Shown piece by piece: positions 2,299-37,734 of a stretch of DNA of 43,755 nt. A program made the position numbers and the translations under genes. Every line of letters begins with the position of its first letter. Position 1 is the first letter of the stretch. Source of the stretch: a virus; the UHGV virus genome UHGV-0008389. One strand, given 5' to 3'. The notes below the pieces were generated by a model that saw only the letters and a program-made list of their open reading frames with translations, had not been told where the DNA came from and did not search any database.

Positions 2299-3054
2299 TT
2301 ATTTACCTATAGCTATCCATCGACAATAAGTTGTATTGCTACCTGATGGCTGGGAACCCATTAAGCTAAAACCAAGACCGGTACTAACGGGTGTAGCAGC
2401 AAAAGAAGGAATTGAATTTACTGAAGATTCCGTATTATCATACGACACAACAATTTGCACGGTTGAGTAGTTGGTAAATGCAATGGGGAAATTTATAAAA
2501 GTGGGAGATCCAATCGCTCCTGCCACTGAAATACCACGTTGAAAGATAGTTCCATCAGGGTAACGACACCAGCCATTTCCACTTGTAAAGCTAGACATGT
2601 CAGGAATTTGATTGGTGCCGGTCCCTACATTTCTTTTAGCCGCTTCTCCTAAACCAAGATATGAAAAAGCATCTTTCCACCCGGCACCATTGCTGTTTGG
2701 ATCAGATAGATTTCCTTCTGTTGTGTTAATGAATATTCTTTCCCCATCGTTCGAGATGAGCATCGCCCCTGACGGATATCCAGAAATCTCCGAAGCAAAT
2801 TCAGAATCAAAAGTATTCAGCGCCCCGCTGCTCGACCATCTACCCAGAGCAGAAAGTTCGTATAAAATTTGGTTCATATCCTGGCCTTTTGGCGGCAAAC
2901 CGCCAGCAGATTTCAGGATCATTGTTATTGGAGGAAACCCCAGTTCATACGATGCTGAGTTATCTCCTGCAGGAGTGGTTGGCAATATTACCCCTCTCTG
3001 TCCATTAACTCCAAATGGCTTAGGTTGTTTTTTAGGTGAGTCAGAACGATTCAT
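2299..3054 (-). CDS. Tail fibre protein
   Basis: 251 aa, Gly/Ser/Thr-rich; position between the baseplate gene and tfa. Confidence 0.65.
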   Translation of the reverse strand: MNRSDSPKKQPKPFGVNGQRGVILPTTPAGDNSASYELGFPPITMILKSAGGLPPKGQDMNQILYELSALGRWSSSGALNTFDSEFASEISGYPSGAMLISNDGERIFINTTEGNLSDPNSNGAGWKDAFSYLGLGEAAKRNVGTGTNQIPDMSSFTSGNGWCRYPDGTIFQRGISVAGAIGSPTFINFPIAFTNYSTVQIVVSYDNTESSVNSIPSFAATPVSTGLGFSLMGSQPSGSNTTYCRWIAIGK

Positions 3055-3056
3055 GC

Positions 3057-3695
3057 TTAATTCCTATAAAATGTGCCATCATTAAACGGATAGGCATCAG
3101 ATGCAAAACCAAAATAATGGCTAATGATTTTACGTATATTTACCAGAACACCACTCGGAACGGGCATCACCTCATAATTCGTGAGAATAGATTCTTCGTA
3201 TGGCGCAAGCTCAAATTCAAACGTTATTCCTATTGTCATATCTCGATAATTTACGCAATATGCTCTCCCTCTTTGATAAAAAAGTATTTTTAGAAATTTA
3301 TTTATATCTGTAATGGTGGCTATGCTTATGTTGGCAAATGCCTTGCAAAAAATCAATGTTCTGTAAGCGTCATCCCCGAGCCTGACACTTGTTGTTTCCT
3401 GCACTCCACCATAAAAAGGAGAATCATTAAATGGTGAAGGATAATCAGTGCTTCCATCGTCAGCCTCACTAAATCCAAATGAGTCACTGTCAATTGGAGC
3501 GACGATGTATCTGCTTATACCTACTATTTTCCCCCACATATCAAGGCCAAAAGATTCACACGTTGTCAAATCCCATACCTTTTTGATGAATTCATCTGTG
3601 AAGTCATCTAGGCTTACCGCCTGATTAAAAGTGTCAATGACAGATAATAGTTTTTTGCTTGCCGAGTATTGGGTAAGAATTGTGTCTTCCCACAT
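3057..3695 (-). CDS. Baseplate/tail protein (Mu gp48 / YmfQ-like, tentative DUF2313)
   Basis: 212 aa; synteny with the J-like baseplate gene upstream and tail fibre downstream. Confidence 0.55.
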   Translation of the reverse strand: MWEDTILTQYSASKKLLSVIDTFNQAVSLDDFTDEFIKKVWDLTTCESFGLDMWGKIVGISRYIVAPIDSDSFGFSEADDGSTDYPSPFNDSPFYGGVQETTSVRLGDDAYRTLIFCKAFANISIATITDINKFLKILFYQRGRAYCVNYRDMTIGITFEFELAPYEESILTNYEVMPVPSGVLVNIRKIISHYFGFASDAYPFNDGTFYRN

Positions 3696-3706
3696 GCTGC
3701 TCCCCC

Positions 3707-4936
3707 CTACGATAATGTAACAGTGATATCTGATTCCTGAATGGTTGGAACCTGGTCTATGCCCATAGTCACAGCGGGTCCGTATAGTGAACCGTCTATG
3801 GAAATTTCAAGAGACAAAATTCCAACTGTATCAGGAGATATTGAAATAACAGGGGCATAGTATTTACCAGCATTTATCGTAGAACCAATTCGTGCCTTTC
3901 CAATACCCTCATACCCTCCATTGAACACGGTGACAACCATTTCCTTTACTTGTTTAGTAATATCACTTGGGGGATTTAGTGAAGAATCGATATTTACCTT
4001 AAAGTAAACCCGCGTAGGTGATGCCTTTTGCCATTGCATTACGTAAGATGGATATGGCGGCATGTAATTAACGTTATCGTAAACAGTGAACGTTGTATCA
4101 CCATTCATATTGGCGCCGGGGTTATAAGTATTGAATATTGACTCAGCAACATCAGTATCAGCCCCGCCATAAACACAAATATAAACAGAATGCGCAAGAA
4201 TCGGGAAATTCGTTGTTCCTTTATTTACTGTTTCTGCAGTTCTGTTTGACCATACGTAAGCATCAAGCACACCATCTGTCGCAAGTAACGCAGCTAATGT
4301 AGACGCATCCTGATTTCTGCTGTTTCTGGCAACTGATTGTCTCCGGCGAGTTTCAAAGGCGATCCGTGATTCAACATCAACACCAACGACCCCAGGGCTG
4401 ATATTATTTACAGCATCCCACCCGGAAACGGCTCGATAAATCTGATTCAGGGAGCCCGCTGCACACGGAATTGGTCCGGTTGTTGTGTTGACAAACTGCA
4501 CATCAACAGAGCCTGATGAGGGTATTACGGCATTGTCAATTGACTGATATATATACCCGCTCGTATCCACAGCGGTACTCCCTGCTGGTATTGTTGTTCC
4601 AACCTGACCAATGCATGTTGCCGTAACAACTGTCCCCTGAGCAGCGATCCGTTCCATAAAGTAAATCCGGCCAATCCCGTCCTGGAATCTGCCAGTTGAA
4701 AAGTCAGGGTTAATTTGATTAAACAAACAAAGAAGCTTGTCGTATTCCTGAGCGATAATTTCAGTATCAGACTGTGCGATCTGCCCTTGCGGTGAACTCA
4801 GTGACTGACTTGCACCACCACCAAGAGCCGTTGACATGTCTGTAAGTCTTCCCGCCAGCACATCCGCTATGTCGGGAACTGAAAGACCGTTTTCAGTGAT
4901 GGTTACATCAGGAACAGCCGTATTTAATATCGTCAT
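3707..4936 (-). CDS. Baseplate J-like protein (Mu gp47-like)
   Basis: 409 aa; size and position in a Mu-like baseplate cluster. Confidence 0.6.
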   Translation of the reverse strand: MTILNTAVPDVTITENGLSVPDIADVLAGRLTDMSTALGGGASQSLSSPQGQIAQSDTEIIAQEYDKLLCLFNQINPDFSTGRFQDGIGRIYFMERIAAQGTVVTATCIGQVGTTIPAGSTAVDTSGYIYQSIDNAVIPSSGSVDVQFVNTTTGPIPCAAGSLNQIYRAVSGWDAVNNISPGVVGVDVESRIAFETRRRQSVARNSRNQDASTLAALLATDGVLDAYVWSNRTAETVNKGTTNFPILAHSVYICVYGGADTDVAESIFNTYNPGANMNGDTTFTVYDNVNYMPPYPSYVMQWQKASPTRVYFKVNIDSSLNPPSDITKQVKEMVVTVFNGGYEGIGKARIGSTINAGKYYAPVISISPDTVGILSLEISIDGSLYGPAVTMGIDQVPTIQESDITVTLS

Positions 4937-5292
4937 AAGGTGGCCTGTGCAATATTACCATTGATATCTGTAACGCGGATTGTGCCGCGAGTTGTGCGTG
5001 TATTCTTGTCAAAGAAAACTGATGCCAGAGCATCCTCAACGACAGGTAATTTGAGTGCTTCAGCCTGCATTTTCTGAGCAATAAAACCAGGAGATGGTCG
5101 CCTGCCAAGAACTTCTGCCTTCCATGGAATCCCAAGCGTATTATCGTAATAACACTCTCCAGAAAACACCAGGCACGCACTGGCGACATCCTGAGCAACA
5201 GAATATGATTCTTCTGCGATCGCCAGATTGCCATTTCCGTCAAGCGTCAAGTCCCACGTAGAAGTGTCCAGTTGCATAGTTCTGTATGTCAT
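4933..5292 (-). CDS. Baseplate protein (Mu gp46 / GP46-like)
   Basis: 119 aa; translationally coupled between the V-like and J-like genes. Confidence 0.5.
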   Translation of the reverse strand: MTYRTMQLDTSTWDLTLDGNGNLAIAEESYSVAQDVASACLVFSGECYYDNTLGIPWKAEVLGRRPSPGFIAQKMQAEALKLPVVEDALASVFFDKNTRTTRGTIRVTDINGNIAQATL

Positions 5293-5981
5293 GTCGGTTT
5301 ATCCGTTGCATTGGAATTTATTGTTGACCCACCACTTTGTACTCCTGAAACAGAATGTTTGTGATTGTTATAGTTGTCCCTTAAATTTTTAACAGTAGAT
5401 GACTGTGAACTTGCGTTATCCTGAATATCGCCGCTAACTTTAAGTAAAGGTGTATTCATGTTGACTCCACCAGGAGCATCAATATTTAACGATGAACATT
5501 TAATATTTAGTGGATTAGGCGTGGTTATATTTATTGCACCGTCAGCGAATTCAATGAATTGAGTAGGTGAAATGTTTAATACCCCACCAAGATAAATCGC
5601 ATCCGATTTACTGTGTCGTCTTTTGCTTCCAGGTACTGATTCTTTACGATTTTTTCTTACCAGTGATGTGTCTTTGTCGCATACCGCAATCAGACCAATA
5701 TCACCCGCCACAGGGTCCATAATTACAGCACTGTTGCCTCTCTGCAACCGCCATACAGGAATATCATATAAAACCGAGTTGGAAATCATTTTTCCTGTGC
5801 GGTCTGTTCTGGTCAGCAAAGGAAGAGCATCAACAACTAAATCTGGTGCCTCACCCCTGACTTCCTGAACTTTTGCTAACTCAATGAAGAAATATCCAGA
5901 CATCAGCATCTCAAAAATATATTCCTGAGATTGAGCCTCACTCACCTGAGCAGGTGTTGGGGTAAATAGTTGCTTATCCAT
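5289..5981 (-). CDS. Baseplate assembly protein V-like (spike)
   Basis: Longest ORF is 5289-6074; the internal Met (MDKQLF...) gives a start abutting the upstream gene. Position and size fit a gpV-like spike. Confidence 0.55.
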   Translation of the reverse strand: MDKQLFTPTPAQVSEAQSQEYIFEMLMSGYFFIELAKVQEVRGEAPDLVVDALPLLTRTDRTGKMISNSVLYDIPVWRLQRGNSAVIMDPVAGDIGLIAVCDKDTSLVRKNRKESVPGSKRRHSKSDAIYLGGVLNISPTQFIEFADGAINITTPNPLNIKCSSLNIDAPGGVNMNTPLLKVSGDIQDNASSQSSTVKNLRDNYNNHKHSVSGVQSGGSTINSNATDKPT

Positions 5982-6963: not shown

Positions 6964-7150
6964 GGTAGGAATATCTTACCATCTTATTCCCATACAGACA
7001 TGGAACGCCCTGCATAATTGGGACTTCATTAACAGTTAAATCCATGTACATAAAACTCTGTCGCTGAACAAGTTTTATATTACATTGCTGACCAGCCAGA
7101 CTTACCGAAATGGACTGAGATTTGCTGGGAAGAACAGATACTGTAATCAT
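6848..7150 (-). CDS. Hypothetical tail protein
   Basis: 100-aa ORF within the tail operon, coupled to the upstream gene. Confidence 0.35.
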   Translation of the reverse strand: MITVSVLPSKSQSISVSLAGQQCNIKLVQRQSFMYMDLTVNEVPIMQGVPCLYGNKMVRYSYLGFKGDLIFIDNDGESDPQWEGLGSRYLLYYIEENELV

Positions 7151-7962
7151 GTACTCGCCTTAACTATATTTTTTGCAATATCTGCCGCTTTTTTTGTTGC
7201 GCTGTTTGTGACTTCGAGTATTGGTTTGGATACCGTATCAAGAGCGCTCTGGAATTCAGTCTTGATTGTGTCGGAGATTTTTCCAGTGATTTCGCCAACA
7301 GATGACTTCAGTGATGACCATGATTTACTTAGCTCATCGACAGTAGATTCCCTGGCTCCGCCATTGGTTATTTGCGGATCAACTCCTACATCTCCCTGTG
7401 ACTTATTGTTATCCGTTGGCTTCTGTTCTGACTGAGATCCAGAGAGGATAACCTCCATTTGCTGAATGACCTCCTGAAAATCAAGATAAACCGTCAGAAG
7501 AGTCACCCCTTTTTGAGAGTTAACTTCGTAATAGTGGTCAACAAGGTCGAAACTCTCCAGAGTTTCCTTTGGCGTTTCAATATCGTATGTTTTTGCTGAT
7601 GACAACATCGTTTTGATTGTGTTCAGCGTGCTGTTCTGGCTTGTGAATGTGAGATCGAAAATATTCGGGATGTTGCCGGAAAAACCAGTAAGACCATTTA
7701 CGATGATTGCGCATCTTATTCTGGCGGGTTCTTTAACTTTGTTGATGGACTGGTATTTCCCTTTCTCCACCGGAGCGTTTGTTATTTGCGCCCTTCCACT
7801 TGGCTGTACGGATGCCATACCACTGAACTCAAGAGCAACCTCGCCAGTTTCCCTGTCACGAATCACATACTGGGGATGCAGAACGCTGTCGATGATCGAA
7901 AGCGGAGAGCCACCACCGATAGCATTGAATATGTCTGCTGTGTTTAAATCGATTATGCTCAT
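7147..7962 (-). CDS. Hypothetical tail/baseplate protein
   Basis: 271 aa; first gene after the minus-strand terminator at 7975-7999, resuming the tail operon. Confidence 0.4.
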   Translation of the reverse strand: MSIIDLNTADIFNAIGGGSPLSIIDSVLHPQYVIRDRETGEVALEFSGMASVQPSGRAQITNAPVEKGKYQSINKVKEPARIRCAIIVNGLTGFSGNIPNIFDLTFTSQNSTLNTIKTMLSSAKTYDIETPKETLESFDLVDHYYEVNSQKGVTLLTVYLDFQEVIQQMEVILSGSQSEQKPTDNNKSQGDVGVDPQITNGGARESTVDELSKSWSSLKSSVGEITGKISDTIKTEFQSALDTVSKPILEVTNSATKKAADIAKNIVKAST

Positions 7963-7974: not shown

Positions 7975-7999
7975 AAACAAAAACCCAGCCGAAGCTGGG
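7975..7999 (-). terminator. Intrinsic terminator closing the inserted immI-like module
   Basis: On the minus strand CCCAGC ttcg GCTGGG followed by TTTTTGTTT. Confidence 0.6.
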
Positions 8000-8012
8000 T
8001 TTAGTGAATTGG

Positions 8013-8231
8013 CTAGTTATCAAAAAGTCCGTACGTTTCTTCTTCAGGAGTAAGGGGAAGAATCTCAATTCTATCTATAGATACCTTTTCAATGTACCCA
8101 TGAGGTCTGCTTAAAATTAAAGCTCTCTCATGCCACAGAACTCCAAGAATGTGATACCTTCCAGCATAGCCTTTTACCCTGGCTCTTCCTTTGATTCTTG
8201 GCGGCATAATGCCATATTTTTTCTTTGCCAT
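8013..8231 (-). CDS. Hypothetical small basic protein
   Basis: 72-aa ORF coupled to the upstream gene (ATG overlaps its stop). Confidence 0.4.
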   Translation of the reverse strand: MAKKKYGIMPPRIKGRARVKGYAGRYHILGVLWHERALILSRPHGYIEKVSIDRIEILPLTPEEETYGLFDN

Positions 8232-9007
8232 TATGCAACATTACTCCCATGAATCAGGTGTTGTAGTGCTTTAACACCTTCCGCATTGTAGCGGAATGCT
8301 TCCACCTGTTTGCTGGAATGTGCAGATTTATCCAGGAAGAACTTCCCGTACTGCTCAGTTTTGAGGTTGTTTGCGTTAGCAATGCGACCAATCTTGTTGG
8401 CCGTTACTCCAAGCTGCTCTGCAACCTCCCCTGCTGAGTAGTAATGCTCTTCTATTGCTGGAAGAGGTATTGCATTAAAACCAACGATCGGGTTGATTAT
8501 GTTTGCTGCCGCAGTCTGCTTTGCTTCCGGCGCAAGATTTGGCATCAAATCGAACAGATTGATAACAGCTTCAACCGTCATTTTCAATGTTCGCGCCTGG
8601 CGATACTCAACAAGTCCACTCGACGATTTACCGCTTTTAATGTGCGCTTCCTGCATACTTTCAAGTTTGTCTACAAGTGTTCGGCGAACTGCTTTAGATT
8701 CGCGAGCAGCAACACGAAGCGCCTGCTTGATAGTCATGGAGATAACATCAATGTCAGCCCCGTTTTTCCGACCTACACTTTTTGTGTAGGTCTCGCCCTC
8801 CAATTCATCCTCAATTTTCTCGATGAATTTGTTGTTACGTACTGATGGCTCTCCACATAACTTGCGAGCTTCATTAACCATCATCAGAAGACTTTGACTG
8901 TCAATGGTTTTATCCGTGACAACGGATCCGATGTTTGCTACATTCTTAAAAGTCATTAGGCATTCCTTATGTGGTAGTAAGGGTGTGACATAGGCCGCCA
9001 GCAGCAC
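8231..9007 (-). CDS. Putative antirepressor-like regulatory protein (KilA-C-like C-terminal region, tentative)
   Basis: 258-aa ORF; C-terminal ...AGEVAEQLGVTANKIGRIANANNLKTEQYGKFF resembles KilA-C/ANT-type domains; real start may be the internal Met at about 8956. Confidence 0.4.
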   Translation of the reverse strand: MLLAAYVTPLLPHKECLMTFKNVANIGSVVTDKTIDSQSLLMMVNEARKLCGEPSVRNNKFIEKIEDELEGETYTKSVGRKNGADIDVISMTIKQALRVAARESKAVRRTLVDKLESMQEAHIKSGKSSSGLVEYRQARTLKMTVEAVINLFDLMPNLAPEAKQTAAANIINPIVGFNAIPLPAIEEHYYSAGEVAEQLGVTANKIGRIANANNLKTEQYGKFFLDKSAHSSKQVEAFRYNAEGVKALQHLIHGSNVA

Positions 9008-9021
9008 ACTGGCGGTTTTTT
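8990..9021 (+). terminator. Plus-strand hairpin with T8 between ant and the next gene
   Basis: CCGCCAG cagcaca CTGGCGG followed by TTTTTTTT on the plus strand. Confidence 0.4.
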
Positions 9022-9040
9022 TTCACCGCCAGATGCGTCA

Positions 9041-9955
9041 TTAATACAGATGAACAGAAGGCGGCAATTCTTTATTCTTAAGCCTTATCCATGCGGAAAG
9101 ATTCGTTGGTCCGTCTGGCTCATTAATATCAACATCTCGTGTGTGGTTTATTAAAACGTCTCTCGCCATTCCGATAACATGCGAGAACTCATGACCATAG
9201 TCGTAGCATCTGCCGGAATAGTTCGATTGAATTTGTTTTAATGCCGGATACAGTTCGCGGAATAATGCCTGTGAACGGTTAGCATAATCCCATAGCCATA
9301 CAAGGCTGTTTGCTTCTTTTGCAGAAAGCTCGTTGGTTTTCTTCTCTTGTTTGCCAATGAACTCACCTTCAAGCGGAACGCGAGCAGCAAGTGACAGTGC
9401 TTCGGCAAACTGCTCCTCACTGATTTCTTTGTACGAACATCCAAAATGGGATTTCAGTGACGACCACATGGTGATCATCGCCTTAGCCTGTTTTTCTTTT
9501 GGCAGAGACTGACCGCAACTCATGACGAGTTGTTTAATGGCTTCCTGCTGTTCAGTGGTGATTTTACCCGGCAACGCCTTTTTAGCTTTCGGTGTATTTC
9601 CGTAAGACCCCGTTTTACGAATGGATGGCAAAACTTCAGCTGTCACCCATTTGCGGAATTTGTGCGGGACTGAACCTTTATTGACGGCATCACGGCAGCG
9701 CAGAACCAATGTATACATACCTGATTCGCTCACAATGCTTAAATTCTGCTCACCACCAAGGGTGTAACTTAAAGTTACTCCCTTCTCATCGTTATCAAGT
9801 GCAGTAAGCGCCTTGCGTGAGTTAGTCAGAGTTAAAGCATCACAAACATCTTTTGCTACAAACCACGGCTCACCGCACTTGTTGATGACGCGGATTTCAC
9901 TGTCGCCGAATTTGAAGATGGTGAAATCGTTTTGTGCCTTTGCTATACTTTTCAT
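9041..9955 (-). CDS. ant: Antirepressor Ant (Bro-N domain)
   Basis: 304 aa; N-terminal [30 protein letters not shown] matches the Bro-N motif of P22-type antirepressors; follows an arc-like gene. Confidence 0.8.
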
Positions 9956-10026
9956 GTCAATATTTCCCGATCAGATTTGTTGATGTAGAAGCCTCGCCAG
10001 TTCCCGCTGTCGGGGCTTCGTTATTT

Positions 10027-10188
10027 TTAGAGAGCATTCCGCATTTTCTCCCGGTACTTCAACCACCAAGCAAGTCCCTGAACCAACACTGAGTTTTCTG
10101 ACATCCCCTCTTCCTTAGCGATGCGTTTCACCTCCTCCTTAAAACGGTACGGATACCGAAGAGTTGTCTTCACTTCATTCTTTTCCAT
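10027..10188 (-). CDS. arc: Arc-like ribbon-helix-helix repressor (53 aa)
   Basis: Unlisted small ORF MEKNEVKTTLRYPYRFKEEVKRIAKEEGMSENSVLVQGLAWWLKYREKMRNAL; AAGGAG RBS upstream; same length as P22 Arc with a matching NGRS-NSE-type RHH motif; lies immediately upstream of ant. Confidence 0.6.
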   Translation of the reverse strand: MEKNEVKTTLRYPYRFKEEVKRIAKEEGMSENSVLVQGLAWWLKYREKMRNAL

Positions 10189-10205
10189 TGATCACTCCTT
10201 TTTAC

Positions 10206-10270
10206 GTAATGGCATTATGCCTTGAAAGCAATATGCCATCATTGAATATAAATAGCAATATGCCATCATT
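10206..10270. promoter_or_regulatory. Divergent promoter/operator region of the immI-like module
   Basis: Palindrome GGCATTATGCC (10210-10220) and two direct copies of GCAATATGCCATCATTG (10227-10243, 10254-10270) between divergent arc-like and mnt-like genes. Confidence 0.5.
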
Positions 10271-10290
10271 GTTTTTTTTGAGGTGATGTT

Positions 10291-10611
10291 ATGGCTGAAA
10301 AGCAGGTTAAAGATTACGAAAAGTTTGTTGTGCGTTTCCCTGACGGGATGAGGGACGCGATTGCGGAGAGAGCCAAACGAAACGGGCGCTCTATGAACTC
10401 AGAGATTGTGCAGATACTGGAAGATGCCTTGAATGCAGAAAATACTCTTGGGGAAATAGCAGACAAAATCAACAGCGTCTCGGTTCCGCTAAATGTTGAT
10501 GCGCTAGTTCAACTTCAAGCCCAGGTTATCGCCATGCAAAAAGAAATACAGGAAAAGTTCAGAGAGCAGAACGAAAAGTTGAGAGAACTGCTAAACAAAA
10601 AACCCACCTGA
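10291..10611 (+). CDS. mnt: Mnt-like ribbon-helix-helix repressor
   Basis: 106 aa; FPDGMRDAIAERAKRNGRSMNSEIVQILEDAL matches the P22 Mnt/Arc RHH region (NGRSMNSE...QI); divergent from arc/ant. Confidence 0.7.
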   Translation: MAEKQVKDYEKFVVRFPDGMRDAIAERAKRNGRSMNSEIVQILEDALNAENTLGEIADKINSVSVPLNVDALVQLQAQVIAMQKEIQEKFREQNEKLRELLNKKPT

Positions 10612-10630
10612 CGGTGGGTTTTCATTTTTA
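10600..10630. terminator. Bidirectional intrinsic terminator between mnt-like gene and tape measure gene
   Basis: CCCACC tgac GGTGGG flanked by A-run upstream and T-run downstream. Confidence 0.65.
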
Positions 10631-10679: not shown

Positions 10680-12494
10680 CTAAGGCATTGCACTGGAAAA
10701 TGCCGCGTTTGTTGACGCCCGGCTAACTTGCTGATTGACACTTCTGGTAAGAGCATCAACTGTTGTCGGGTTACTGTTAACAACTACCGTGCCAATAGTT
10801 GTACTGCTGCTACGGCTGTTGTCAATTTTTGATGTTGTCTGGCTTGGTGTTGAAGCGATGCGTTGCTGCTGCTGATAGTAAGCCAGCGTCTCGTTTTCTT
10901 TTGCATTAAGAGCGGCGCGAATCTTTGGTACATATTCTCGCGTTTCTTTCGGCAGGGTGTTCCAGTATTTGGATGATGGTGAATCAAACCCGGTACTGGA
11001 TATGTATTTTAACTTTTTGTCTACATTGCCCATCCCCCAGTTGTAAGCCATCAGCGCATGGTTAACATTGCCTTTATAGTGCTTTAGCAAATCCCTCATG
11101 AACCTTTCAGCAGCAGCGCGAGATTTCACTTCATCAAGACGCTCATCAATCCCATCCCCGACCTTTAACCCGTACGCTATGGCAGTATCCTTCATGAACT
11201 GATACGGACCAACGGCACCTTTCGGGCTGTAAAGTTTTTTGCCACCGCTCGATTCCACCTCACGAATGGCATCAAGAAGAGAATCCATGCTTACTGGCTT
11301 TACTCCGTCAGGGAGAGGGATATCTGGCTGAATGTTATTGCCATAAATCTCATCACCCCTACGCCCAAAATCGGTATCAAACCCCATGCTGCGCATGGTA
11401 TCTCCAAGTTCACGCTTAGAGTAATCAAACGATCCTTTAGCTGCCCCCTCAATGTTTTCCCTGTCATTGTAGAGATACAAACCATATGCTATTAACCCTG
11501 CTAACCATGGAGGAAGGGCGCCGCCTGTAAGTTTGCTTCCTACATATGCTGCTGCCAATAGCTTCAGAGCCTCTTCCGCACCACCAACTGCCTTTGTGAA
11601 TTGCTGCGTCATATTCCCGGCGTCATTGAAAAAGCCAATGATGTCGCCATGATGTTTCTCAATCCAGGAACCAAAAGCCTTCATCCCGTCAATAACGTCT
11701 GGAGCGAATGCCATGGCTAAATTTTGCTTTAATCGGGAAAACTCTGAATCAAGTTGCCCAAGAGTGGCAGCAACCTTCTCCTGCTCTTTTACCTGCTGTG
11801 CTGTAATACGGGATTTCTTTGTTTCTGAATCGACAAGCTGCTTAAGTTCCCCTGATTTTATTTTAGCGGCATCTGTCGGATCGAACCCTGCGGCAGCCAT
11901 CACCTGCATCAGGTTTTCTTGAGAATGAGTCTTGCCATAGCGAGAAAACTCAGCAAGAGCCTTGTTTGGGTCGCCGAGCTTATTGATATCTATTCCGGTA
12001 CGAGCTCCAAGAATCAGCAAATTTTGTGCAGCGCCAGTAAGCCCTCCCATAACAGTCGGATCGGCAATATTTGCCAAAGCCATTCTGGCATTCCCAGAAG
12101 ATGAAATGAACGAGTCACCGTTAAGACCAGCCTGGCGAAATCCCCGCTGAACACCAAACATCTTATTAACATCAGAGTCGAAAAACTTGGCCTGTTGGCT
12201 GGCCCTCACAATTTCGTTGGCAGTAGATGTAAAAAGTTGCTTAATTCCATACAACCCGGCGCCAATTCCCAAAAATCCAGCGGCTGCTGTTGTCACGTTG
12301 CGGAAAGCTGAAACAGCGGTTTTACCGAACCTCTCCGTTTCCTGCCGCTGTTTTTCAAGTTCCTTTAGCCTTTCCTTCTCAGCCCTGGAAAGATCTTTGT
12401 TTAATTTACTAACTTCATCTTTTACTTTCCGTTTTCCATTCAGGAATTCATCGGCCTTAATTGTGACCTTGTAGGCCAACTCATTGATAATCAT
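10680..12494 (-). CDS. Tail tape measure protein with C-terminal lytic transglycosylase (SLT) domain
   Basis: 604 aa, long helical N-terminal part; C-terminal motifs EVESSGG ... GAVGPYQFM ... AYNWG typical of SLT domains. Confidence 0.8.
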   Translation of the reverse strand: MIINELAYKVTIKADEFLNGKRKVKDEVSKLNKDLSRAEKERLKELEKQRQETERFGKTAVSAFRNVTTAAAGFLGIGAGLYGIKQLFTSTANEIVRASQQAKFFDSDVNKMFGVQRGFRQAGLNGDSFISSSGNARMALANIADPTVMGGLTGAAQNLLILGARTGIDINKLGDPNKALAEFSRYGKTHSQENLMQVMAAAGFDPTDAAKIKSGELKQLVDSETKKSRITAQQVKEQEKVAATLGQLDSEFSRLKQNLAMAFAPDVIDGMKAFGSWIEKHHGDIIGFFNDAGNMTQQFTKAVGGAEEALKLLAAAYVGSKLTGGALPPWLAGLIAYGLYLYNDRENIEGAAKGSFDYSKRELGDTMRSMGFDTDFGRRGDEIYGNNIQPDIPLPDGVKPVSMDSLLDAIREVESSGGKKLYSPKGAVGPYQFMKDTAIAYGLKVGDGIDERLDEVKSRAAAERFMRDLLKHYKGNVNHALMAYNWGMGNVDKKLKYISSTGFDSPSSKYWNTLPKETREYVPKIRAALNAKENETLAYYQQQQRIASTPSQTTSKIDNSRSSSTTIGTVVVNSNPTTVDALTRSVNQQVSRASTNAAFSSAMP

Positions 12495-29916: not shown

Positions 29917-30203
29917 GACTTAATCTTCCCCTCCTTCAGCAGTATCGCCTGCGTCCTGATCACGCCTTCGAGGTGGTAAAGTCTGGCGTCTTTGTTGTCG
30001 AGATTATGGGTGCGTCGGTCGATTTCATCGTGACACGCGCTACAAGCCCATGCGCCGATCAGGTCGTCAGGCTTCATTCCAGTTCCGCAAATTCCAGCCA
30101 TCCGGTAATGTGCCAGAACTGTAGTTTCAGGATTACCATTGCATACGCCGTAAATACGTACCTGGCATTCTCTGTTGCGCGCTTCTTTGCGTAGATTGGC
30201 CAT
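29913..30203 (-). CDS. Cys-rich nin-region protein (tentative DUF1364-like)
   Basis: 96 aa with conserved-looking Cys/His pattern (C-x-V-x-x-C ... C-x-x-C-H). Confidence 0.45.
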   Translation of the reverse strand: MANLRKEARNRECQVRIYGVCNGNPETTVLAHYRMAGICGTGMKPDDLIGAWACSACHDEIDRRTHNLDNKDARLYHLEGVIRTQAILLKEGKIKS

Positions 30204-30925
30204 TAAGCAGCCTCCCCTGTTACTTTCAGCATTCCGTTATCGAGCAGCTTTCTGGTCAGCCACTGTTGGCCACGCCCGGTGATTTTTGTGGTGAACGATA
30301 TCTGTATTCCGTGATTTGTGTTGACCGCTGTTTCTTTCACTGTGAAATAGCCGCGATCCATATATTCCTGCATTGGCACATTGCGCCGGGAACCTGAAGC
30401 AATAAGTATTTTGTGATCGCGCATCCACGCAAACAGTTTGTTTGGACCAATACCGACAACCTTTGCAAAGTTTCCAATCAAAATTCCGCTGGCCTCGCCA
30501 ACGCGATCGGCAAACTCAACTTTAGGTGCGGCAATTGCGAGCTGGTTTTCCAGTTGCATTTTCTGCTCAGCAAGATCAGCAGCAAGGCGCAACGCTTCTG
30601 GTAGCGTTTTGGGGATATTAACCGCAGCTTCTTCAAGCTCTCGCCAGCGGTCAACAAGGCGAGCGGTGAATTCCGGAGACAACTGGGCAACAACGACAAT
30701 ACTGTCTCGCTTACCTTGTTCGCCTTCGAAGACGTAATGCTCGTACTGAACATTGAACCCTAAGTTATTGATTCTTTCGGAAACCTCAATTTGAGGAAGC
30801 CGGATAACACCATTTTTAGCCAGCGTTTCGATGGTACGTTTCACATTGTCATGACGCTTACCAACCAACTCAGCGATTTCAATGCTTGTCATTTTGATGG
30901 CATTGCCATTTATTAACTCATTCAT
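30203..30925 (-). CDS. Antirepressor-like protein (Rha/AntA-like N-terminal domain plus KilA-C-like C-terminal domain)
   Basis: 240 aa; N-terminal MTSIEIAELVGKRHDNVKRTIETL; C-terminal VGEASGILIGNFAKVVGIGPNKLFAWMRDHKIL resembles KilA-C. Confidence 0.65.
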   Translation of the reverse strand: MNELINGNAIKMTSIEIAELVGKRHDNVKRTIETLAKNGVIRLPQIEVSERINNLGFNVQYEHYVFEGEQGKRDSIVVVAQLSPEFTARLVDRWRELEEAAVNIPKTLPEALRLAADLAEQKMQLENQLAIAAPKVEFADRVGEASGILIGNFAKVVGIGPNKLFAWMRDHKILIASGSRRNVPMQEYMDRGYFTVKETAVNTNHGIQISFTTKITGRGQQWLTRKLLDNGMLKVTGEAA

Positions 30926-31130
30926 CGTCTTCTTCCTCGTACATTGAGCTATTCGGATCGCTCATCAGTTCTGCACAGCAGTGCTCACACACGTGAACTT
31001 CCAGCACATGCAGCTTCTGACCGCAATTAGCGCACGTTAAAGCCCGCTCGACGCTTTCTTGTTCGTAACTTCGATTTTGGTCAATCACCTTGTTTTCCTC
31101 GCACGATGTCTTAGCCACCGGATATCCCAC
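30918..31130 (-). CDS. ninF: NinF-like protein
   Basis: C-terminal [47 protein letters not shown] matches lambda NinF as recalled; true start may be an internal GTG. Confidence 0.7.
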
Positions 31131-31267
31131 AGGTGAGCCGTGTAGTTGAAGGTTTTTACGTCAGATTCTTTTGGGATTGGCTTGCGTTTATTTCTGGAGC
31201 GTTTCGTTGGAAGGTATTTGCAGTTTTCGCAGATGATGTCGGTGAAACTTCGTCGCTGTCGCCTCAT
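31085..31267 (-). CDS. ninE: NinE-like protein
   Basis: Internal-Met product [60 protein letters not shown] matches lambda NinE as recalled. Confidence 0.8.
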
Positions 31268-31794
31268 GCCGCCCTCCTGACGCCCTGCCCGATCGCCATC
31301 AATGCCGCTTTGGATACGGTAGTAAACATCCGTCGAGGACTGATGAACGGTCGCCAAATCAGCAGCATGGATCCTTTGCTGTTTCCCTTCTTCTCCAGCC
31401 CTGTCGATGGTTCGATAAAATTAATCCGTCCATCAGTGATAATGCGAACTTCGTCAACACTCTCCAGAGCCTTGCTGAACCATCCGACAGACATATCCTC
31501 TGGCACAAGCATAACTACCGTCTGTCGCTGTTGTATGCACTGCTCAGCGGCTTTTTCCACCCACGGCCTGATATTGCTGTACGGTGGGTTATTCCAGATT
31601 GCACCGTGGCTTATCCACTCAGAATTTAGCGCGTCGTCGGCCTCAGTTAACCAGTGAGCGCACAGAGCATTTTTGTCGCTCGCTGCCGAATCCAGCCAGA
31701 ATCCAAACTCAATATCCAGTGCATCAAAAAGCCAAAGCGGCGTTTGCCAGCAGTCTCTAACTTCTTTTGGTGTTTCTGATTTATGTTTAATCAT
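31264..31794 (-). CDS. Phage Dam-like DNA N6-adenine methyltransferase (orphan)
   Basis: 176 aa; NPPY motif ([10 protein letters not shown]) typical of N6-adenine methyltransferases; no cognate restriction gene of classical type adjacent. Confidence 0.8.
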
Positions 31795-32318
31795 TCAACC
31801 CTCGCATATTGTCCGTGATATTTGTTGATAGCCTCACTGGCAACCAAACCAGCAAGCTCAAGATCTTCATAGAACCCAAAATGCAACCGGCCAAAATCTG
31901 TGCGCACTTGAACGGCCCATTTATTTTTTTGCTTGTTCCATAAAACATTTTTTATTCCAGAACGGCTATTGCACTTAGTTTTCTGATTTCGGCTGTTTGC
32001 TATCCGGCTTGCCTCCCTAAGATTTTTTGGGGAATTGTCCAGCCTGTTTCCGTTAATATGGTCAATATTTTTCAATGGCATTCTTTTGTTGTGCAGCGCA
32101 AAAACAACTACGTGAACAAACATCTGAATGCCTGCAAAACACACCTGTCTATACCCAGATCCATTTATCGATGTTTTAATTTCATCTCCGGCCCGGTGGC
32201 TGTGGTTGGGGTGTTTTAGCGAGTCCTTTTTGTATCTGACTGTATCTCCGTCTAAATACAGATAATCCTCAATAAGCCGATACCTATCTGACGCTGGCGT
32301 ATTTGATTTGATAGTCAT
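31791..32318 (-). CDS. HNH homing endonuclease with AP2-like DNA-binding domain
   Basis: HNH motif IDHINGNRLDNSPKNLREASRIANSRNQ and C-terminal AP2-like WNKQKNKWAVQVRTDFGRLHFGFYEDLELAGL; AT-rich; start taken at the internal Met (MTIKSNT...) abutting the ninB stop. Confidence 0.75.
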   Translation of the reverse strand: MTIKSNTPASDRYRLIEDYLYLDGDTVRYKKDSLKHPNHSHRAGDEIKTSINGSGYRQVCFAGIQMFVHVVVFALHNKRMPLKNIDHINGNRLDNSPKNLREASRIANSRNQKTKCNSRSGIKNVLWNKQKNKWAVQVRTDFGRLHFGFYEDLELAGLVASEAINKYHGQYARVE

Positions 32319-32755
32319 GCAGCCCGATCTCCCCATCGCGCTTTCCATTCGAGAGCTAGTCGCGCTTCGTCTGACCACTTAACGCCACGCTCTGTACCGA
32401 ATGCCTGTATAAGCTCTAATAGCTCCGCAAATTCGCTTACACGCATCCTGCTGGTTGACTGGCCTATTACCACAAAGCCATTCCCGGCAAGGTTAGGAAC
32501 AACGTCCTGCTGCTTTAAGGCTGCGGTAAACACACACTTCCAGCTTTCTGCATCCAGCCAGCGACCATGCCATTCAACCTGACGCGAAACGTCACCAAGG
32601 CAAGCCCAAAGCTTCCGATTTTGGTCTAAGCTGCGGTTGCGTTCCTGAATGGTTACTACGATTGGTTTGGTTGGGTCTGGAAGAATTTGCTGTACTGCGT
32701 GAATAGCGTTTTGCTGATGTGCCGGAGATCGAATTTCAAAGGTTAGTTTTTTCAT
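32315..32755 (-). CDS. ninB: Recombination protein NinB
   Basis: MKKLTFEIRSPAHQQNAIHAVQQILPDPTKPIVVTIQERNRSLDQNRKLWACLGDVSRQVEWHGRW... near-identical to lambda NinB as recalled. Confidence 0.9.
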   Translation of the reverse strand: MKKLTFEIRSPAHQQNAIHAVQQILPDPTKPIVVTIQERNRSLDQNRKLWACLGDVSRQVEWHGRWLDAESWKCVFTAALKQQDVVPNLAGNGFVVIGQSTSRMRVSEFAELLELIQAFGTERGVKWSDEARLALEWKARWGDRAA

Positions 32756-32828
32756 GACTTCCCTCTCCCCCAAATAAAAAGGCCTGCGATTACCAGCAGG
32801 CCTGTTATTAGCTCAGTGATGTAGATGG

Positions 32829-33119
32829 TCATTGCCTTACCTCCATAAGCGCCCTATTAATAAACGCCGTCATTGGATTTGCACATCCCCACCCCGTACC
32901 ATCTGGATTTCTTTTAATTGGCTCCTTCTTCACTTTGCGTTTTGCATAAATAACCGTCTTCCACTTACGCTCAACAACACTCAAATACCCTTGTTTCACC
33001 ATATGCCTTGCTGCTTGAGCGATTCTGTTATTTGGTATTCCGGTAATCAGAGCTAATTCATGTGGGGAGAATTGTTCATGAGTTTTCAGATATTCCAGGA
33101 TGATTTCTTTTCCAGTCAC
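32829..33119 (-). CDS. ren: Ren-like protein
   Basis: 96 aa beginning MTGKE, same length and position (downstream of the replication genes) as lambda Ren; moderate similarity only. Confidence 0.55.
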   Translation of the reverse strand: MTGKEIILEYLKTHEQFSPHELALITGIPNNRIAQAARHMVKQGYLSVVERKWKTVIYAKRKVKKEPIKRNPDGTGWGCANPMTAFINRALMEVRQ

Positions 33120-34027
33120 GATCTGCTCCTGTAACTATCCCATGTAAACGCAAGGGTGCATCCGCCGCCATCATTCATCCTGTCAATAACACGCTCACCA
33201 ATGAATGCAGACAGTTCATCTTTGCTCTGGTTGCTAATCAGGATTGTTGGCTTCATGTATTCATATCTGGTGTTGATAATTTCGAACATGATTAGCTTTT
33301 CAGCATCACTGCCGAACTGCACGCCAACCTCATCGATTATTAACAAGTCAGGATGCGTAAATTGCCTAATGACTTCTTCTTCAGTTCTGGTTGCGGCCTT
33401 AGACCATGTTGATTTGTACTCTCTGGCAATTTTCAACGCAGTGGTAAATATCACAGAGCTTTGATGCTCGATAATGGCGTGCCTAGCGATAGCCAGTGCA
33501 AGGTGGTTCTTTCCAGTTCCAGGCTTACCACACATGACCAGTCCGCCACCTTTTTGAAGGCGTTCAGGCCACTTACTGGCATATGCCTGGCATACCTTAA
33601 GAACTCGCTTTGCATCATCGTTAACAGGCTCATAATTCTGAAGAGTGCAATTTTTGAACCTCTCTGGAATATTGAGAGAATTCAACAAATATTCAATTTT
33701 TGATTGTCTTGCTCTTTGTTCTGCCTGCTCACGTTCAATCTCTTTCTTACGAATTTTCTCCTCAAGGCACTGTGGGCACTCAGATTTACTTGAAGTAATT
33801 CTTTTTCCTGAGATGGTCAGATATTTCTCATAGGAAGTATATTTACCGTGTTTCTCGCACTCTTCCACTGTGCTGGTAACTGACATTCCATCTGATGCTG
33901 ATCCAATTTTGCTAAACTCAAGTTTCTGTTTCAGATCAGAAATGTCATTGATTTTTGAGTCTACAAGTTGCCTTTGCAGTGCCAGATTGTAACCATTTGT
34001 CGTATTCATATTCACTCCTGCGCCCAT
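33116..34027 (-). CDS. DnaC-like helicase loader (replication protein)
   Basis: 303 aa; Walker A GKPGTGKNHLALA and IstB/DnaC-like layout; immediately downstream of O. Confidence 0.8.
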   Translation of the reverse strand: MGAGVNMNTTNGYNLALQRQLVDSKINDISDLKQKLEFSKIGSASDGMSVTSTVEECEKHGKYTSYEKYLTISGKRITSSKSECPQCLEEKIRKKEIEREQAEQRARQSKIEYLLNSLNIPERFKNCTLQNYEPVNDDAKRVLKVCQAYASKWPERLQKGGGLVMCGKPGTGKNHLALAIARHAIIEHQSSVIFTTALKIAREYKSTWSKAATRTEEEVIRQFTHPDLLIIDEVGVQFGSDAEKLIMFEIINTRYEYMKPTILISNQSKDELSAFIGERVIDRMNDGGGCTLAFTWDSYRSRS

Positions 34028-34857
34028 GAAGGCATTTCAGTTTTCCCGTAATCTTTGGCGGCAAAGTTTTCCTGCATAGCTCGCTGCTGCGGCCTCGGTT
34101 GAGATTTCCCCTTTGGAGTCTTGGGTTCAAAAATCCCCTGCCAACCACTGGCGATGCTCTGGTTTATAATTTCTTCAGGTGTATATCCCTTCTCCAGACT
34201 TCTGCTTAGAACGTTGATAGCCTGAGTGACACTTTGCTTAGACTTGATCGACTTACCTATCTCCTTGCGATAGGTAACCCACGACAACCATGTTTCTGCT
34301 GATAACCAATCAGGCAACTCTGTTTCTAGCGGGTCGAACTTCTGAGAAACTTTTTTGGGGGATATAGGGGGTTTATTAATATTTTCTTTTTTCTTTAAAG
34401 AATTTCTTTTGTGTGTCTCTAACTTCGAGACATTGAGTGTCTCTAATTTGGAGACATTTTTTGTCTCTAACTTCGAGACAAAGTTACTAACTTGGAGACA
34501 CTTGCTGAATTGCCACGCAGATACCTCACTGTTTACACCGATTTTATTTCCATCCATAAACAGGCAATTCATTGAAATCAGTTCTTTTTTAGCCTTGTTA
34601 ACATTCTGCCTTGACAGTCCTGTTAACTGAGCAATTTGCTCATCGGCTATTCGATCTGTTTTCTTATTGAAGCCATATGTTTTCCGGACGTAGGCCAGCA
34701 TAACTTTCAACTGGCGAGCGGTTAAATCGGCACTTGCGATAGCTTCCAGCAGCTCGTTAGCGAATCTGGTGTAACCATCATCGATATCAGCCACTCTTAG
34801 CTCCTGTTCGGCAAAGTTACCTCTGCCGAAGTTGAGTATTTTTGCTGTATTTGTCAT
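34012..34857 (-). CDS. O: Replication initiator O
   Basis: 281 aa; N-terminal MTNTAKILNFGRGNFAEQELRVADIDDGY... matches lambda O as recalled; iterons lie inside the gene. Confidence 0.85.
   Translation of the reverse strand: MTNTAKILNFGRGNFAEQELRVADIDDGYTRFANELLEAIASADLTARQLKVMLAYVRKTYGFNKKTDRIADEQIAQLTGLSRQNVNKAKKELISMNCLFMDGNKIGVNSEVSAWQFSKCLQVSNFVSKLETKNVSKLETLNVSKLETHKRNSLKKKENINKPPISPKKVSQKFDPLETELPDWLSAETWLSWVTYRKEIGKSIKSKQSVTQAINVLSRSLEKGYTPEEIINQSIASGWQGIFEPKTPKGKSQPRPQQRAMQENFAAKDYGKTEMPSWAQE
34414..34500. repeat. ori: Replication origin iterons (four roughly 19-bp inverted-repeat units) with flanking AT-rich region at about 34345-34413
   Basis: TGTCTCTAACTTCGAGACA (34414-34432), TGTCTCTAATTTGGAGACA (34438-34456), TGTCTCTAACTTCGAGACA (34462-34480) and a partial fourth copy ending 34500; located within O as in ori-lambda. 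Confidence 0.75.
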
Positions 34858-34891
34858 AATGACTCCTGTGGATTGTTCCAGTCTTTCTACA

Positions 34892-35170
34892 TCAGGCCTC
34901 GAAGAATTCGCCGTTCTTCGGGGCTTTTTCTTTTGTCAGCATTCTTGCTACTTTCTTAGCCAGTTCCGCCAACTCCTCGTCTTCAACACCCCATTCAAGA
35001 ACAGCCAGAAGCATTCCCATTTTTGGGATGAAGCTATCTTTCCATCGAGAAATTTGCGATTCATTAATCCCTAACGCGTCGGCAACCTTTCGCTGACCAC
35101 GTACAGCAATTCGATTCAGGATGTTGCTTGTAATTGCATTCGCTTTCTTGCGAGTACTTGTAAGTTCCAT
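34892..35170 (-). CDS. cII: Transcriptional activator cII
   Basis: Internal-Met product ...GINESQISRWKDSFIPKMGMLLAVLEWGVEDEE... matches lambda CII conserved region; located between cro and O. Confidence 0.8.
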   Translation of the reverse strand: MELTSTRKKANAITSNILNRIAVRGQRKVADALGINESQISRWKDSFIPKMGMLLAVLEWGVEDEELAELAKKVARMLTKEKAPKNGEFFEA

Positions 35171-35279
35171 ATGCAAGTATTTCCTTAACAAATAAGAAGT
35201 TATGCGCATCAACTTATGCGCGTTGTATTCCCGCATTTCGGCGGGAATGAGGACCATGACTGTTAAAGAGCGGTGTTAC

Positions 35280-35489
<210 letters not shown>

Positions 35490-35506
35490 TTAGTACATGC
35501 AATCAT

Positions 35507-35570
35507 TATCACCGCTAGAGGTAAAATAGTCAACACGCACGGTGTTAGATATTTATCCCTTGCGGTGATA
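35507..35570. promoter_or_regulatory. OR: Right operator OR1-OR2-OR3 with divergent promoters PR (to cro) and PRM (to cI)
   Basis: TATCACCGCTAGAGGTA (35507-35523, OR1), CAACACGCACGGTGTTA (35531-35547, OR2), TATCCCTTGCGGTGATA (35554-35570, OR3); lambda-type 17-bp operators. Confidence 0.9.
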
Positions 35571-35577
35571 GATTTAA

Positions 35578-36294
<717 letters not shown>

Positions 36295-36409
36295 TTCCAA
36301 TTGTGATTTATGAAAAGTCAATTGCGCCAGATTAGCGATGATGACAAACCACTATGTCTTATCCTCAACATGAATACATTCATCGTAACCACAACAGGGA
36401 GTTTAACGA

Positions 36410-37414: not shown

Positions 37415-37430
37415 TCTCTTTGCTCTGTAA
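37245..37430 (+). CDS. Possible overlapping small ORF (61 aa, predicted helical) in alternate frame at the 3' end of the protease gene
   Basis: ATG at 37245 preceded by AGAGGA about 9 nt upstream; product MPKNLQPEMEILNKMLESQIQESRNLARKAEQHLNEIKKELEPY... looks helical, while the in-frame protease tail is low-complexity; stop 14 nt before the terminator. Confidence 0.25.
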   Translation: MPKNLQPEMEILNKMLESQIQESRNLARKAEQHLNEIKKELEPYQFNHQMNSNLMRDLFAL

Positions 37431-37444
37431 TTAATTCCTCACAT

Positions 37445-37470
37445 CCCGGCCTCAGCGCCGGGTTTTCTTT
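37445..37470 (+). terminator. Intrinsic terminator ending the cI-protease (immunity) transcript (tIMM-equivalent)
   Basis: CCCGGC ctcagc GCCGGG followed by TTTTCTTT. Confidence 0.7.
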
Positions 37471-37626
37471 GCCTCACGATCGCCCCACCTAAAAACACAT
37501 AACCAATTGTATTTATTTGAAAATTAATAGATACAACTCACTAAACATCACAATTCAGATCTCCCGATCACCTTCCCAATCCACACACCCCTGCAAAAAA
37601 TAAATCTATATAAAAAACATACAGAT

Positions 37627-37696: not shown

Positions 37697-37734
37697 TCAG
37701 CAGGACGCTGGAAGCCAAACGGAACAGATTGGCA

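Follow-up and report, generated by a model that had tools for sequence, protein, structure and literature searches.

A probable P22 immI-type antirepressor cassette in a variable tail-operon slot of a myovirus prophage, with a likely antisense RNA at its second antirepressor gene

Gene content and control elements of the cassette

We analyzed a gene cassette at positions 7981–10622 of the virus genome UHGV-0008389 (43,755 nucleotides; "the window" denotes this whole stretch), which lies between a tape-measure gene of the SLT type and a Dit-like baseplate gene and which had been described, in an earlier reading of the letters alone (the original prediction), as a P22 immI-like mnt/arc/ant module with two extra genes. 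The minus strand is the direction of the late operon, in which the order runs tape-measure-like gene, cassette, Dit-like gene, Pam3 gp18-like plug, and baseplate hub. The five predicted open reading frames (ORFs), namely mnt, arc, ant, and those for proteins of 258 and 72 amino acids (aa), were all recovered as real genes in the predicted places and orientations. Two features go beyond that description, a homologue of sar antisense to the arc–ant junction and a second candidate countertranscript, here called sar2, over the start of the gene for the protein of 258 aa, which is given below with a corrected length of 241 aa. From mnt leftward, the cassette comprises the following features.

10599–10622, plus strand (both strands by sequence): hairpin, terminator of mnt (terminator scan; A-run upstream, T-run downstream)
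10291–10611, plus strand: Mnt-like repressor, 106 aa, with an N-terminal ribbon-helix-helix (RHH) domain and a C-terminal helical, coiled-coil-like tail (Pfam Arc, E 1.6e-19; PHROG 1287, E 2.8e-50)
10189–10290, no strand: divergent control region, 102 bp (repeat finder and pattern search)
10027–10188, minus strand: Arc-like RHH protein, 53 aa, first gene of the antirepressor operon (PHROG 582 "Arc-like repressor", E 1.6e-10)
9921–10023, plus strand: sar homologue, promoter and RNA (Rfam RF00262 sar, alignment to P22 sar, fold)
9041–9955, minus strand: Ant, 304 aa, with an N-terminal Bro-N and a C-terminal P22_AR_C domain (Pfam Bro-N, E 5.7e-20; P22_AR_C, E 1.3e-29; PHROG 245, E 1.6e-109)
8916–9026, plus strand: candidate countertranscript sar2, promoter and RNA (promoter and terminator scans, motif conservation, covariation)
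8231–8956, minus strand: second antirepressor-class protein, 241 aa, with a P1 Ant1-like N-domain, a helical linker, and a MerR/Xis-like winged-helix C-domain
8013–8231, minus strand: basic-then-acidic protein, 72 aa (PHROG 4977, function unknown, E 2.4e-50)
7981–8002, minus strand: intrinsic terminator ending the arc-ant-241-72 operon (terminator scan; 9-bp stem, then TTGTTT)

The immI-like reading is upheld by direct alignment with P22 Mnt, Arc, and Ant, with similarity found for all three, and it is stronger than the original prediction had it, since a sar homologue is present as well. The Mnt-like protein, encoded on the plus strand and divergent from the ant operon as predicted, is 47% identical to P22 Mnt over the 43-aa N-terminal RHH domain (E 2e-11), and the C-terminal tails are unrelated. 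The Arc-like gene is indeed present on the minus strand, and its product aligns with P22 Arc at 38% identity over 29 aa (BLASTP, E 3e-5), both proteins being 53 aa long; an identical homologue in RefSeq is labelled only "hypothetical protein". The antirepressor, correctly recognized before as a Bro-N protein, carries P22_AR_C in addition. Its last 131 aa are 80% identical to P22 Ant and the N-terminal halves are unrelated, and over its full length it is 92% identical to an Ant of the Stx/PhiR12 type.

A sar homologue is present antisense to the arc–ant junction, as judged from homology and predicted fold. Its promoter, GTGAAA-17-TATACT (9921–9949), lies within the 5′ end of ant and would produce an RNA of ≈67 nt (9957–10023), antisense to the ant start and ribosome-binding site and ending in a terminator hairpin at 9988–10019. 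The Rfam sar model aligns over its full length to 9957–10023 on the plus strand, with 28.5 bits and E 0.0065 in a 2.85-kb search. Relative to the annotated P22 sar, the extended −10 element TTGCTATACT is identical, the complement of the ant start codon stands at the same distance, and the differences in the terminator stem are compensatory; the two RNAs fold alike into a 5′ hairpin followed by the terminator (z about −5.3). A sar-like hairpin is also kept, with compensatory variation, in the Edwardsiella phages GF-2 and Edno5.

The divergent control region between mnt and arc contains exact 18-nt direct repeats, AGCAATATGCCATCATTG, at 10227–10244 and 10254–10271, 27 bp apart, each of which includes an imperfect palindrome ATnGCA..TGCnAT, together with a perfect 11-bp palindrome, GGCATTATGCC, at 10211–10221 that has the half-site GGCAT/ATGCC in common with the repeats. 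A weak candidate for the minus-strand promoter of the antirepressor operon, Pant, pairs a −35 element TTGCTA (10258–10253) with a −10 element CATATT (10235–10230) that carries a TG extension; if so placed, the repeats would lie over its −35 and −10 elements and the palindrome at the transcription start, about +2 to +13. A further exact copy of the operator 12-mer GCAATATGCCAT at 40592 (window 40590–40603) was considered as a third operator; it coincides with the opening codons (MQYAI) of a lambda-type cIII gene and is thus judged a coincidence. Terminators had been predicted at both ends of the module, and the terminator scan found them at 10599–10622 and 8002–7981 (minus strand). The A-run and T-run that flank the former suggest, by sequence, a bidirectional terminator, one that would also stop minus-strand transcription leaving the tape-measure gene when this is not antiterminated.

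The second antirepressor-class gene, its partner, and sar2

The gene behind ant had been described as a KilA-C-like ORF of 258 aa, and the ORF, which spans 8231–9007 on the minus strand, is real; its true start, however, is almost certainly the ATG at 8956, giving 241 rather than 258 aa, because homologues measure 241 to 247 aa and RefSeq relatives 241 to 242 aa, an AGGAA stands 6 nt upstream, and the GTG at 9007 lies inside a hairpin. By sequence, the 241-aa protein is a probable member of an antirepressor-class family, and its N-domain resembles part of P1 Ant1: it matches PHROG 1726 ("anti-repressor") at E 4.8e-100, and residues 14 to 105 are 73% identical to residues 112 to 206 of P1 Ant1 (E 2e-43), with the remainders of the two proteins unrelated. 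Searches of Pfam, of NCBIfam at permissive thresholds, and of PDB sequences gave no match (none that was meaningful in PDB); the Pfam ANT profile (PF03374) did not match, and the best Pfam score was HTH_31 at E 0.13 with the limit set at 10. KilA-C-like is thus a description that holds by fold only. The AlphaFold2 model, with a predicted local distance difference test score (pLDDT) of 70, has a β-α-α-β-β-α N-domain, a helical linker, and a C-terminal winged helix, and its best Foldseek matches among viral models are proteins labelled "antirepressor KilAC", "KilA", and "Rha", down to E 1e-8. The earlier statement that neither trailing gene has an assigned function accordingly stands, as far as profile searches go, for the 72-aa gene but not for the 241-aa gene.

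The gene is also consistent in its position. It lies 72 to 85 nt behind a Bro-N, P22_AR, or ANT-type gene in 18 of 19 places (Enterobacter/Klebsiella, Morganella, Serratia), in modules that have a divergent repressor of the Arc type or of the helix-turn-helix (HTH) plus S24 type and that sit inside a tail operon; the exception is a single Pectobacterium place, where the Bro-N gene is on the opposite strand. Homologues follow Ant genes directly in the tail operons of siphoviruses, podoviruses, and myoviruses. Two names carried by relatives found no backing. The "KilA" label in the record of Escherichia phage JEP4 goes with no similarity to P1 KilA (BLASTP, E 1.1), and the "Roi" label of Stx-phage homologues ≈60% identical to the 241-aa protein (PMC3430580) is unconfirmed, the best tblastn match to HK022 nt 30000 to 38500 (P–Q and beyond) having E 1.5, with roi not annotated in that record. 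In E. coli FDAARGOS_1288, the closest relative with the full architecture, the gene is N-terminally truncated and annotated as a pseudogene (locus L001, 12336–12926), and the sar2 covariance model described below has no hit.

The start of the 72-aa ORF overlaps the 241-aa stop codon (TAATG), which suggests translational coupling of the two genes. Only eight homologues of the 72-aa protein were detected; they conserve a core of about residues 20 to 72, and their first ≈20 residues are dissimilar, as frameshifts in the A-run that follows the ATG would explain, so that either the true start or the weight to be given to the basic N terminus is uncertain (window 8170–8231). Its structural model is poor (pLDDT 56) and has no significant fold match, and Pfam, NCBIfam, PADLOC, and PDB returned no match. 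Both genes might form a host-killing or defence module, of an abortive-infection or toxin–antitoxin-like kind, or else a transcription-factor module riding behind ant. Such cargo does occur in neighboring contexts, with a Panacea-domain pair in the same slot of relatives and Fic/Phd-type pairs in the equivalent slot beside the tape-measure gene of siphovirus prophages; coupling of the kind suggested here is frequent in toxin–antitoxin pairs, the C-domain of the 241-aa protein is a winged helix of a DNA-binding type, and besides the JEP4 "KilA" label there is an account of growth inhibition by the KilA-type domain of phage Phi11 Gp07 (PMC5944126). We nonetheless regard this explanation as improbable: PADLOC, run on all five proteins, yielded nothing beyond weak matches to coiled-coil or HTH profiles (E 1e-3 or worse), resemblance to P1 KilA is lacking, the PHROG label is that of an antirepressor, the N-domain matches a segment of an antirepressor that has been characterized, and the place behind Ant is kept also at loci with no 72-aa partner or a different one.

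Over the start of the 241-aa gene lies an element with the architecture of sar, which is 1 kb away. The predicted promoter, GTGACA-17-TGcTACATT (8916–8944; reported by the scan as GTGACA-17-TACATT with a TG extension), lies inside codons 3 to 14 of the 241-aa gene, and the predicted RNA of ≈72 nt would have its 5′ end near 8952, would be antisense to the start codon and ribosome-binding site, and would end at a strong terminator (8992–9018, plus strand, followed by T8). This terminator stands "wrong-way" between ant and the 241-aa gene; on the sense strand, the terminator scan found none after ant.

We surveyed these motifs in 22 loci from more than a dozen genera. GTGACA, the 17-nt spacer, and the extended −10 element TGnTAnAnT are kept in all 22 despite changes in the encoded residues, as are the start-codon complement 8 nt farther on, the anti-Shine–Dalgarno stretch that follows it, and the hairpin with its T-run on the antisense strand. 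From the 19 distinct sequences RNAalifold predicted nine pairs, with double compensatory changes at five and 97% of cells paired; in 500 column shuffles no equally good result arose, and slid registers did not come close either. A covariance model built on these sequences recovered 29 loci from many Enterobacterales genera (E 2e-4 or better), each with its hit on the antisense strand where the gene begins; 11 of them are diverse loci outside the model. The model had no hits in P22, in P1, in the Stx F451 homologue, or in E. coli slots without the gene, and Rfam has no family matching sar2. Derivation by duplication of sar was considered and rejected, since the sar2 model does not hit the sar region.

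The hairpin and T-run at 8992–9026 could instead be a mere insulating terminator or a structure of the sense-strand mRNA, with the promoter-like motifs reflecting coding constraint and no second antisense RNA being made. GTGACA does cover the invariant Val13-Thr14 codons, the −10 element is likewise in coding sequence, and the Stx-phage homologue, which has a different N terminus, lacks the motifs. Coding constraint alone, however, fits poorly with synonymous positions that are invariant within GTGACA and vary next to it, with an extended −10 that persists while the residues change (N/T, V/L, A/S/T), or with a −35 to −10 spacing of 17 nt at every locus surveyed; a sense-strand structure fits poorly with a T-run that is always on the antisense strand, and at the Pectobacterium locus the same site holds a non-homologous hairpin with a T-run, oriented the same way. 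With the resemblance to sar added, we hold this alternative to be doubtful.

A sar2 RNA is thus likely, if not proven, a rating that reflects the overlap of the promoter motifs with coding sequence. Somewhat more tentatively, and with the balance only slightly in favor, we propose that the P1 Ant-like 241-aa family carries its own cis-encoded countertranscript of ≈60 to 80 nt that is absent from Rfam, and that the cassette holds a tandem, doubly antisense-gated pair of antirepressors, one P22-type and one P1-type, which might neutralize two classes of repressor from one Mnt-controlled promoter. The countertranscript would then represent a new and widespread family of antisense RNAs in Enterobacterales phages, always associated with the second antirepressor in tail-operon "ant morons" (a term taken up below). 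It is the sole element of the cassette that may be new, and it is apparently undescribed.

A hypervariable slot and a mosaic insert

The genes on either side of the cassette were assigned as follows.

10680–12494, minus strand: tape-measure-like tail protein with a C-terminal SLT lytic transglycosylase domain, 604 aa (Pfam SLT, E 2.4e-20; PHROG 2013 "lytic tail protein", E 7.6e-191)
7147–7962, minus strand: Dit-like distal tail/baseplate protein, 271 aa (Pfam Dit_like, E 1.2e-4, 22.6 bits, below the 24.2 cut-off)

Downstream of the Dit-like gene, Pfam identifies the Pam3_gp18 plug (E 1.7e-24), and the baseplate hub is PHROG 196. The prophage combines this contractile tail (DUF3383 sheath) with a cI immunity region of the lambda/HK542 type (window 35581–36294). 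In the close relative L001 (1–5400), the tail-fibre end adjoins gtrA/gtrB-like O-antigen modification genes beside the bioA–ybhB region.

Comparison with relatives establishes that the cassette is an insert and not a structural part of the tail cluster, as had been anticipated. In the distantly related Klebsiella phages RCIP0114 and ST899-OXA48phi17.1, the tape-measure and Dit-like genes are 4 bp apart, which corresponds to an empty slot. The tail module was found in 20 of 5426 complete E. coli genomes, none of which has the two genes directly joined, and the 11 E. coli relatives inspected hold about 10 different cargoes, of the following kinds.

The five genes of the window, one copy with a truncated 241-aa gene
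mnt/arc/ant alone
HTH repressor, 57-aa, P22AR_C, 242-aa, and 73-aa proteins
LexA-family repressor, 57-aa protein, and AntA-type Ant, with or without the 241/73 pair
Arc/Arc/Ant variants
Panacea-domain pair alone
P63C genes
Gene fragments

The Panacea-domain pair, consisting of a Panacea-domain protein (147 aa) and a hypothetical protein of 139 aa, is conserved in the slot of several E. coli relatives, alone or beside an antirepressor module (L005 9343–10210; L006 6207–7074; L087 8311–9178; L088 6207–7074; L090 7840–8707), and looks like a toxin–antitoxin or defence-type moron. The slot of Vibrio phage IKEMa6-1 holds a 130-aa ORF on the opposite strand (L013 4555–4947) with a lipoprotein-type signal, MKLIVIAAIAAMVSGC, which may be a superinfection-exclusion moron. 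Phage ST899-OXA48phi17.1, in which the slot is empty, carries a gene of the Rha family flanked by the tail-tube and chaperone genes and, farther down in the baseplate region, an Arc/Arc/Ant module (L012 1751–2308 and 9281–10768), so that antirepressor cassettes have entered the same tail operon at different points. Furthermore, many siphovirus prophages of Enterobacterales (L014 to L028, about 2500–5700) have an equivalent ant moron between a DUF6246 gene and a TMP_3 tape-measure gene, to which Fic, Phd/YefM plus Fic, T5orf172, or P63C genes are often added.

The original prediction had called the module self-contained, a description that does not hold for its evolution. The ant-arc-mnt block has ≈91% nucleotide identity to the copy that Stx phage 2851 carries between its tail genes L and K, whereas the stretch between the wrong-way terminator and the 72-aa gene, both included, shows 97% identity to part of the P22-like phage JEP4, with similarity that breaks exactly at the T-run. 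By this comparison the cassette is a mosaic of an Stx-phage-type mnt/arc/ant block and a separately travelling block of the 241-aa and 72-aa genes.

So fluid a slot would also be compatible with a decaying passenger, debris of a recombination hotspot that the prophage no longer expresses or uses. Relatives do hold fragments (the truncated gene of FDAARGOS_1288, a frameshifted P63C gene, pieces of tail-fibre and Ant genes), and degraded ant genes have been described in some P22-like morons (Villafane et al., PMC2629481). The copy in the window does not look like such debris, as its five ORFs are all intact, each with a ribosome-binding site or coupling, no damage is seen in the two antisense elements, the operators, or the two terminators, and cultured phages hold near-identical intact copies; we consider decay very improbable. 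Our reading, to which we give a probability of roughly 80%, is that the region is an ant moron, a mobile P22 immI-type secondary-immunity cassette in a hypervariable late (tail) operon slot of a lambda-immunity myovirus prophage.

Proposed switch and comparison with known systems

The functional steps of the switch, that is, expression, DNA binding, and repressor binding, are carried over here from the P22 model of Mnt, Arc, sar, and Ant, for which, as for the logic of immI and the ant moron concept, we draw on PMC2629481 and PMC11016777. In a lysogen, the Mnt-like protein, a tetrameric RHH repressor made from its own promoter, would bind the repeat and palindrome operators and hold the divergent Pant shut, with the flanking terminators insulating the cassette. 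When a genome bearing the cassette enters a cell free of Mnt, Pant would fire briefly until Arc shuts it down, and the cis-encoded sar RNA would pair with the ant ribosome-binding site and limit translation. Ant, through the body that contains P22_AR_C, would bind cI-type repressors non-covalently and lift repression, which would allow growth on, or induction of, lysogens with lambda-type or other lambdoid immunities. Since no sense-strand terminator follows ant, the Pant transcript should run on into the P1 Ant-type antirepressor gene and the coupled 72-aa gene, and the second antirepressor would be throttled by its own ≈72-nt countertranscript over the ribosome-binding site and start codon. 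In lytic growth, Q-antiterminated late transcription would cross the cassette, sense to arc-ant and antisense to mnt, as it must to reach the baseplate genes, so the terminators of the insert could also tune late-gene dosage, a possibility suggested for P22 (PMC2629481).

The original prediction had further proposed cross-talk between the module and imm-lambda repression. The resident cI (237 aa) is of the lambda/HK542 type, which makes the designation imm-lambda plausible, and PMC3064807, citing Susskind & Botstein 1975, reports P22 Ant to be active on lambda cI too; the resident cI is therefore a plausible target of Ant, while cross-talk with cI is to be read as an inference.

Several observations weigh against our reading of the region or narrow it. 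Two of the assignments fall below formal thresholds, with the Arc-like protein scoring 17.5 bits against a Pfam Arc cut-off of 20.4 and the sar homologue falling short of the Rfam gathering score of 43. The Pant candidate agrees with the consensus at only 8 of 12 positions and was not reported by the promoter scan, and no convincing placement was found for Pmnt. As the N-domain of Ant is Bro-N and not P22_AR_N, its range of targets need not equal that of P22 Ant. The resident cI carries an S24-type cleavable C-domain, so that SOS induction does not require Ant, which may act in superinfection only. Finally, the winged-helix domain could make the 241-aa protein a DNA-binding regulator rather than a repressor binder, and the 72-aa protein is not explained by our reading.

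Antirepressor cassettes decide whether the immunity of a resident prophage can be overridden and thereby shape superinfection, cross-induction of prophages, and the spread of phage-borne genes. The P22-type switch, sar included, is found in the tail operons of four tail architectures, always beside or near tape-measure or tail-tip genes, which marks it as a portable unit rather than a P22 peculiarity, and the tape-measure/baseplate junction of this myovirus lineage is a place to seek accessory and defence genes. The element itself is of a known kind (an immI-type ant moron), already annotated in related phages. To this our analysis adds the presence of sar, the probable assignment of the 241-aa protein to a P1 Ant-like class, the hypervariability of the slot, the mosaic makeup of a cassette portable across tail types, and a conserved candidate antisense RNA gating the second antirepressor.

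Among known systems, P22 immI is alike in its divergent Mnt-type repressor, probably in its Arc-type first gene, in the sar element over the ant start, and in an Ant that ends in P22_AR_C, and it has the same gene order, with arc-ant running along the late operon and mnt against it. It belongs to a P22-like podovirus, whereas the host here is a lambda-immunity myovirus; P22 Ant has a P22_AR_N domain in place of Bro-N, and the C-terminal tail of P22 Mnt is unrelated to the one found here, which is longer. With Pant placed as proposed, the control region resembles the O-arc/O-mnt layout of P22, but the operators differ in sequence and layout. The ant gene of the cassette is followed not by a sense-strand terminator but by two more genes and a second antisense element.

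The ant moron of P22-like phages is a variable, non-morphogenetic, independently regulated insert in the late operon, often with an ant gene (Villafane, Casjens et al. 2008, PMC2629481). Ten types occur in sixteen genomes, a turnover much faster than that of the flanking structural genes (PMC2629481), to be compared with the roughly ten cargoes among eleven relatives here; it lies between gene 16 and the tailspike gene, whereas the present slot is between the tape-measure and Dit-like genes of a contractile-tailed phage. GF-2 and Edno5 (Gofduovirus) share the tail gene order and have annotated Mnt/Arc/Ant in exactly the same slot, but they are without the 241-aa and 72-aa genes, have other small ORFs beside mnt, and encode a Dit-like protein only about 66% identical. 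The mnt-arc-ant genes of Stx phages 2851, YYZ-2008, and 1717, with the ≈91% nucleotide identity given above over ant, arc, and mnt, are a tail-operon insert too; in phage 2851 they lie between the lambda-like L and K genes of a siphovirus, and no 241-aa or 72-aa gene follows. In the immI slot of JEP4 (Lederbergvirus), the upstream hairpin/promoter block, the 241-aa gene, and a 73-aa gene lie behind an antirepressor-type gene, as here; JEP4 differs in its C2-like HTH repressor, its 57-aa first gene, its upstream antirepressor of the Rha type, and its classical P22 position.

Finally, P1 immI (c4 RNA, icd, ant1/ant2) contributes the Ant1 segment shared with the 241-aa N-domain, the C-terminal half being unrelated. 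Output of the P1 antirepressor is limited by antisense RNA, a trait that the antirepressors of the cassette would share. C4 RNA has no Rfam match in the region at E up to 5, and no icd-like gene is evident among its ORFs, although no search was aimed at icd; C4 is a processed, trans-acting RNA, whereas the RNA predicted here is a cis-encoded countertranscript like sar. Control of the antirepressors of Gifsy prophages by the host LexA protein (Lemire et al. 2011, PMC3121763) contrasts with the Mnt/Arc RHH proteins of the window, and some E. coli relatives have a LexA-family (HTH plus S24) repressor beside Ant in this very slot.

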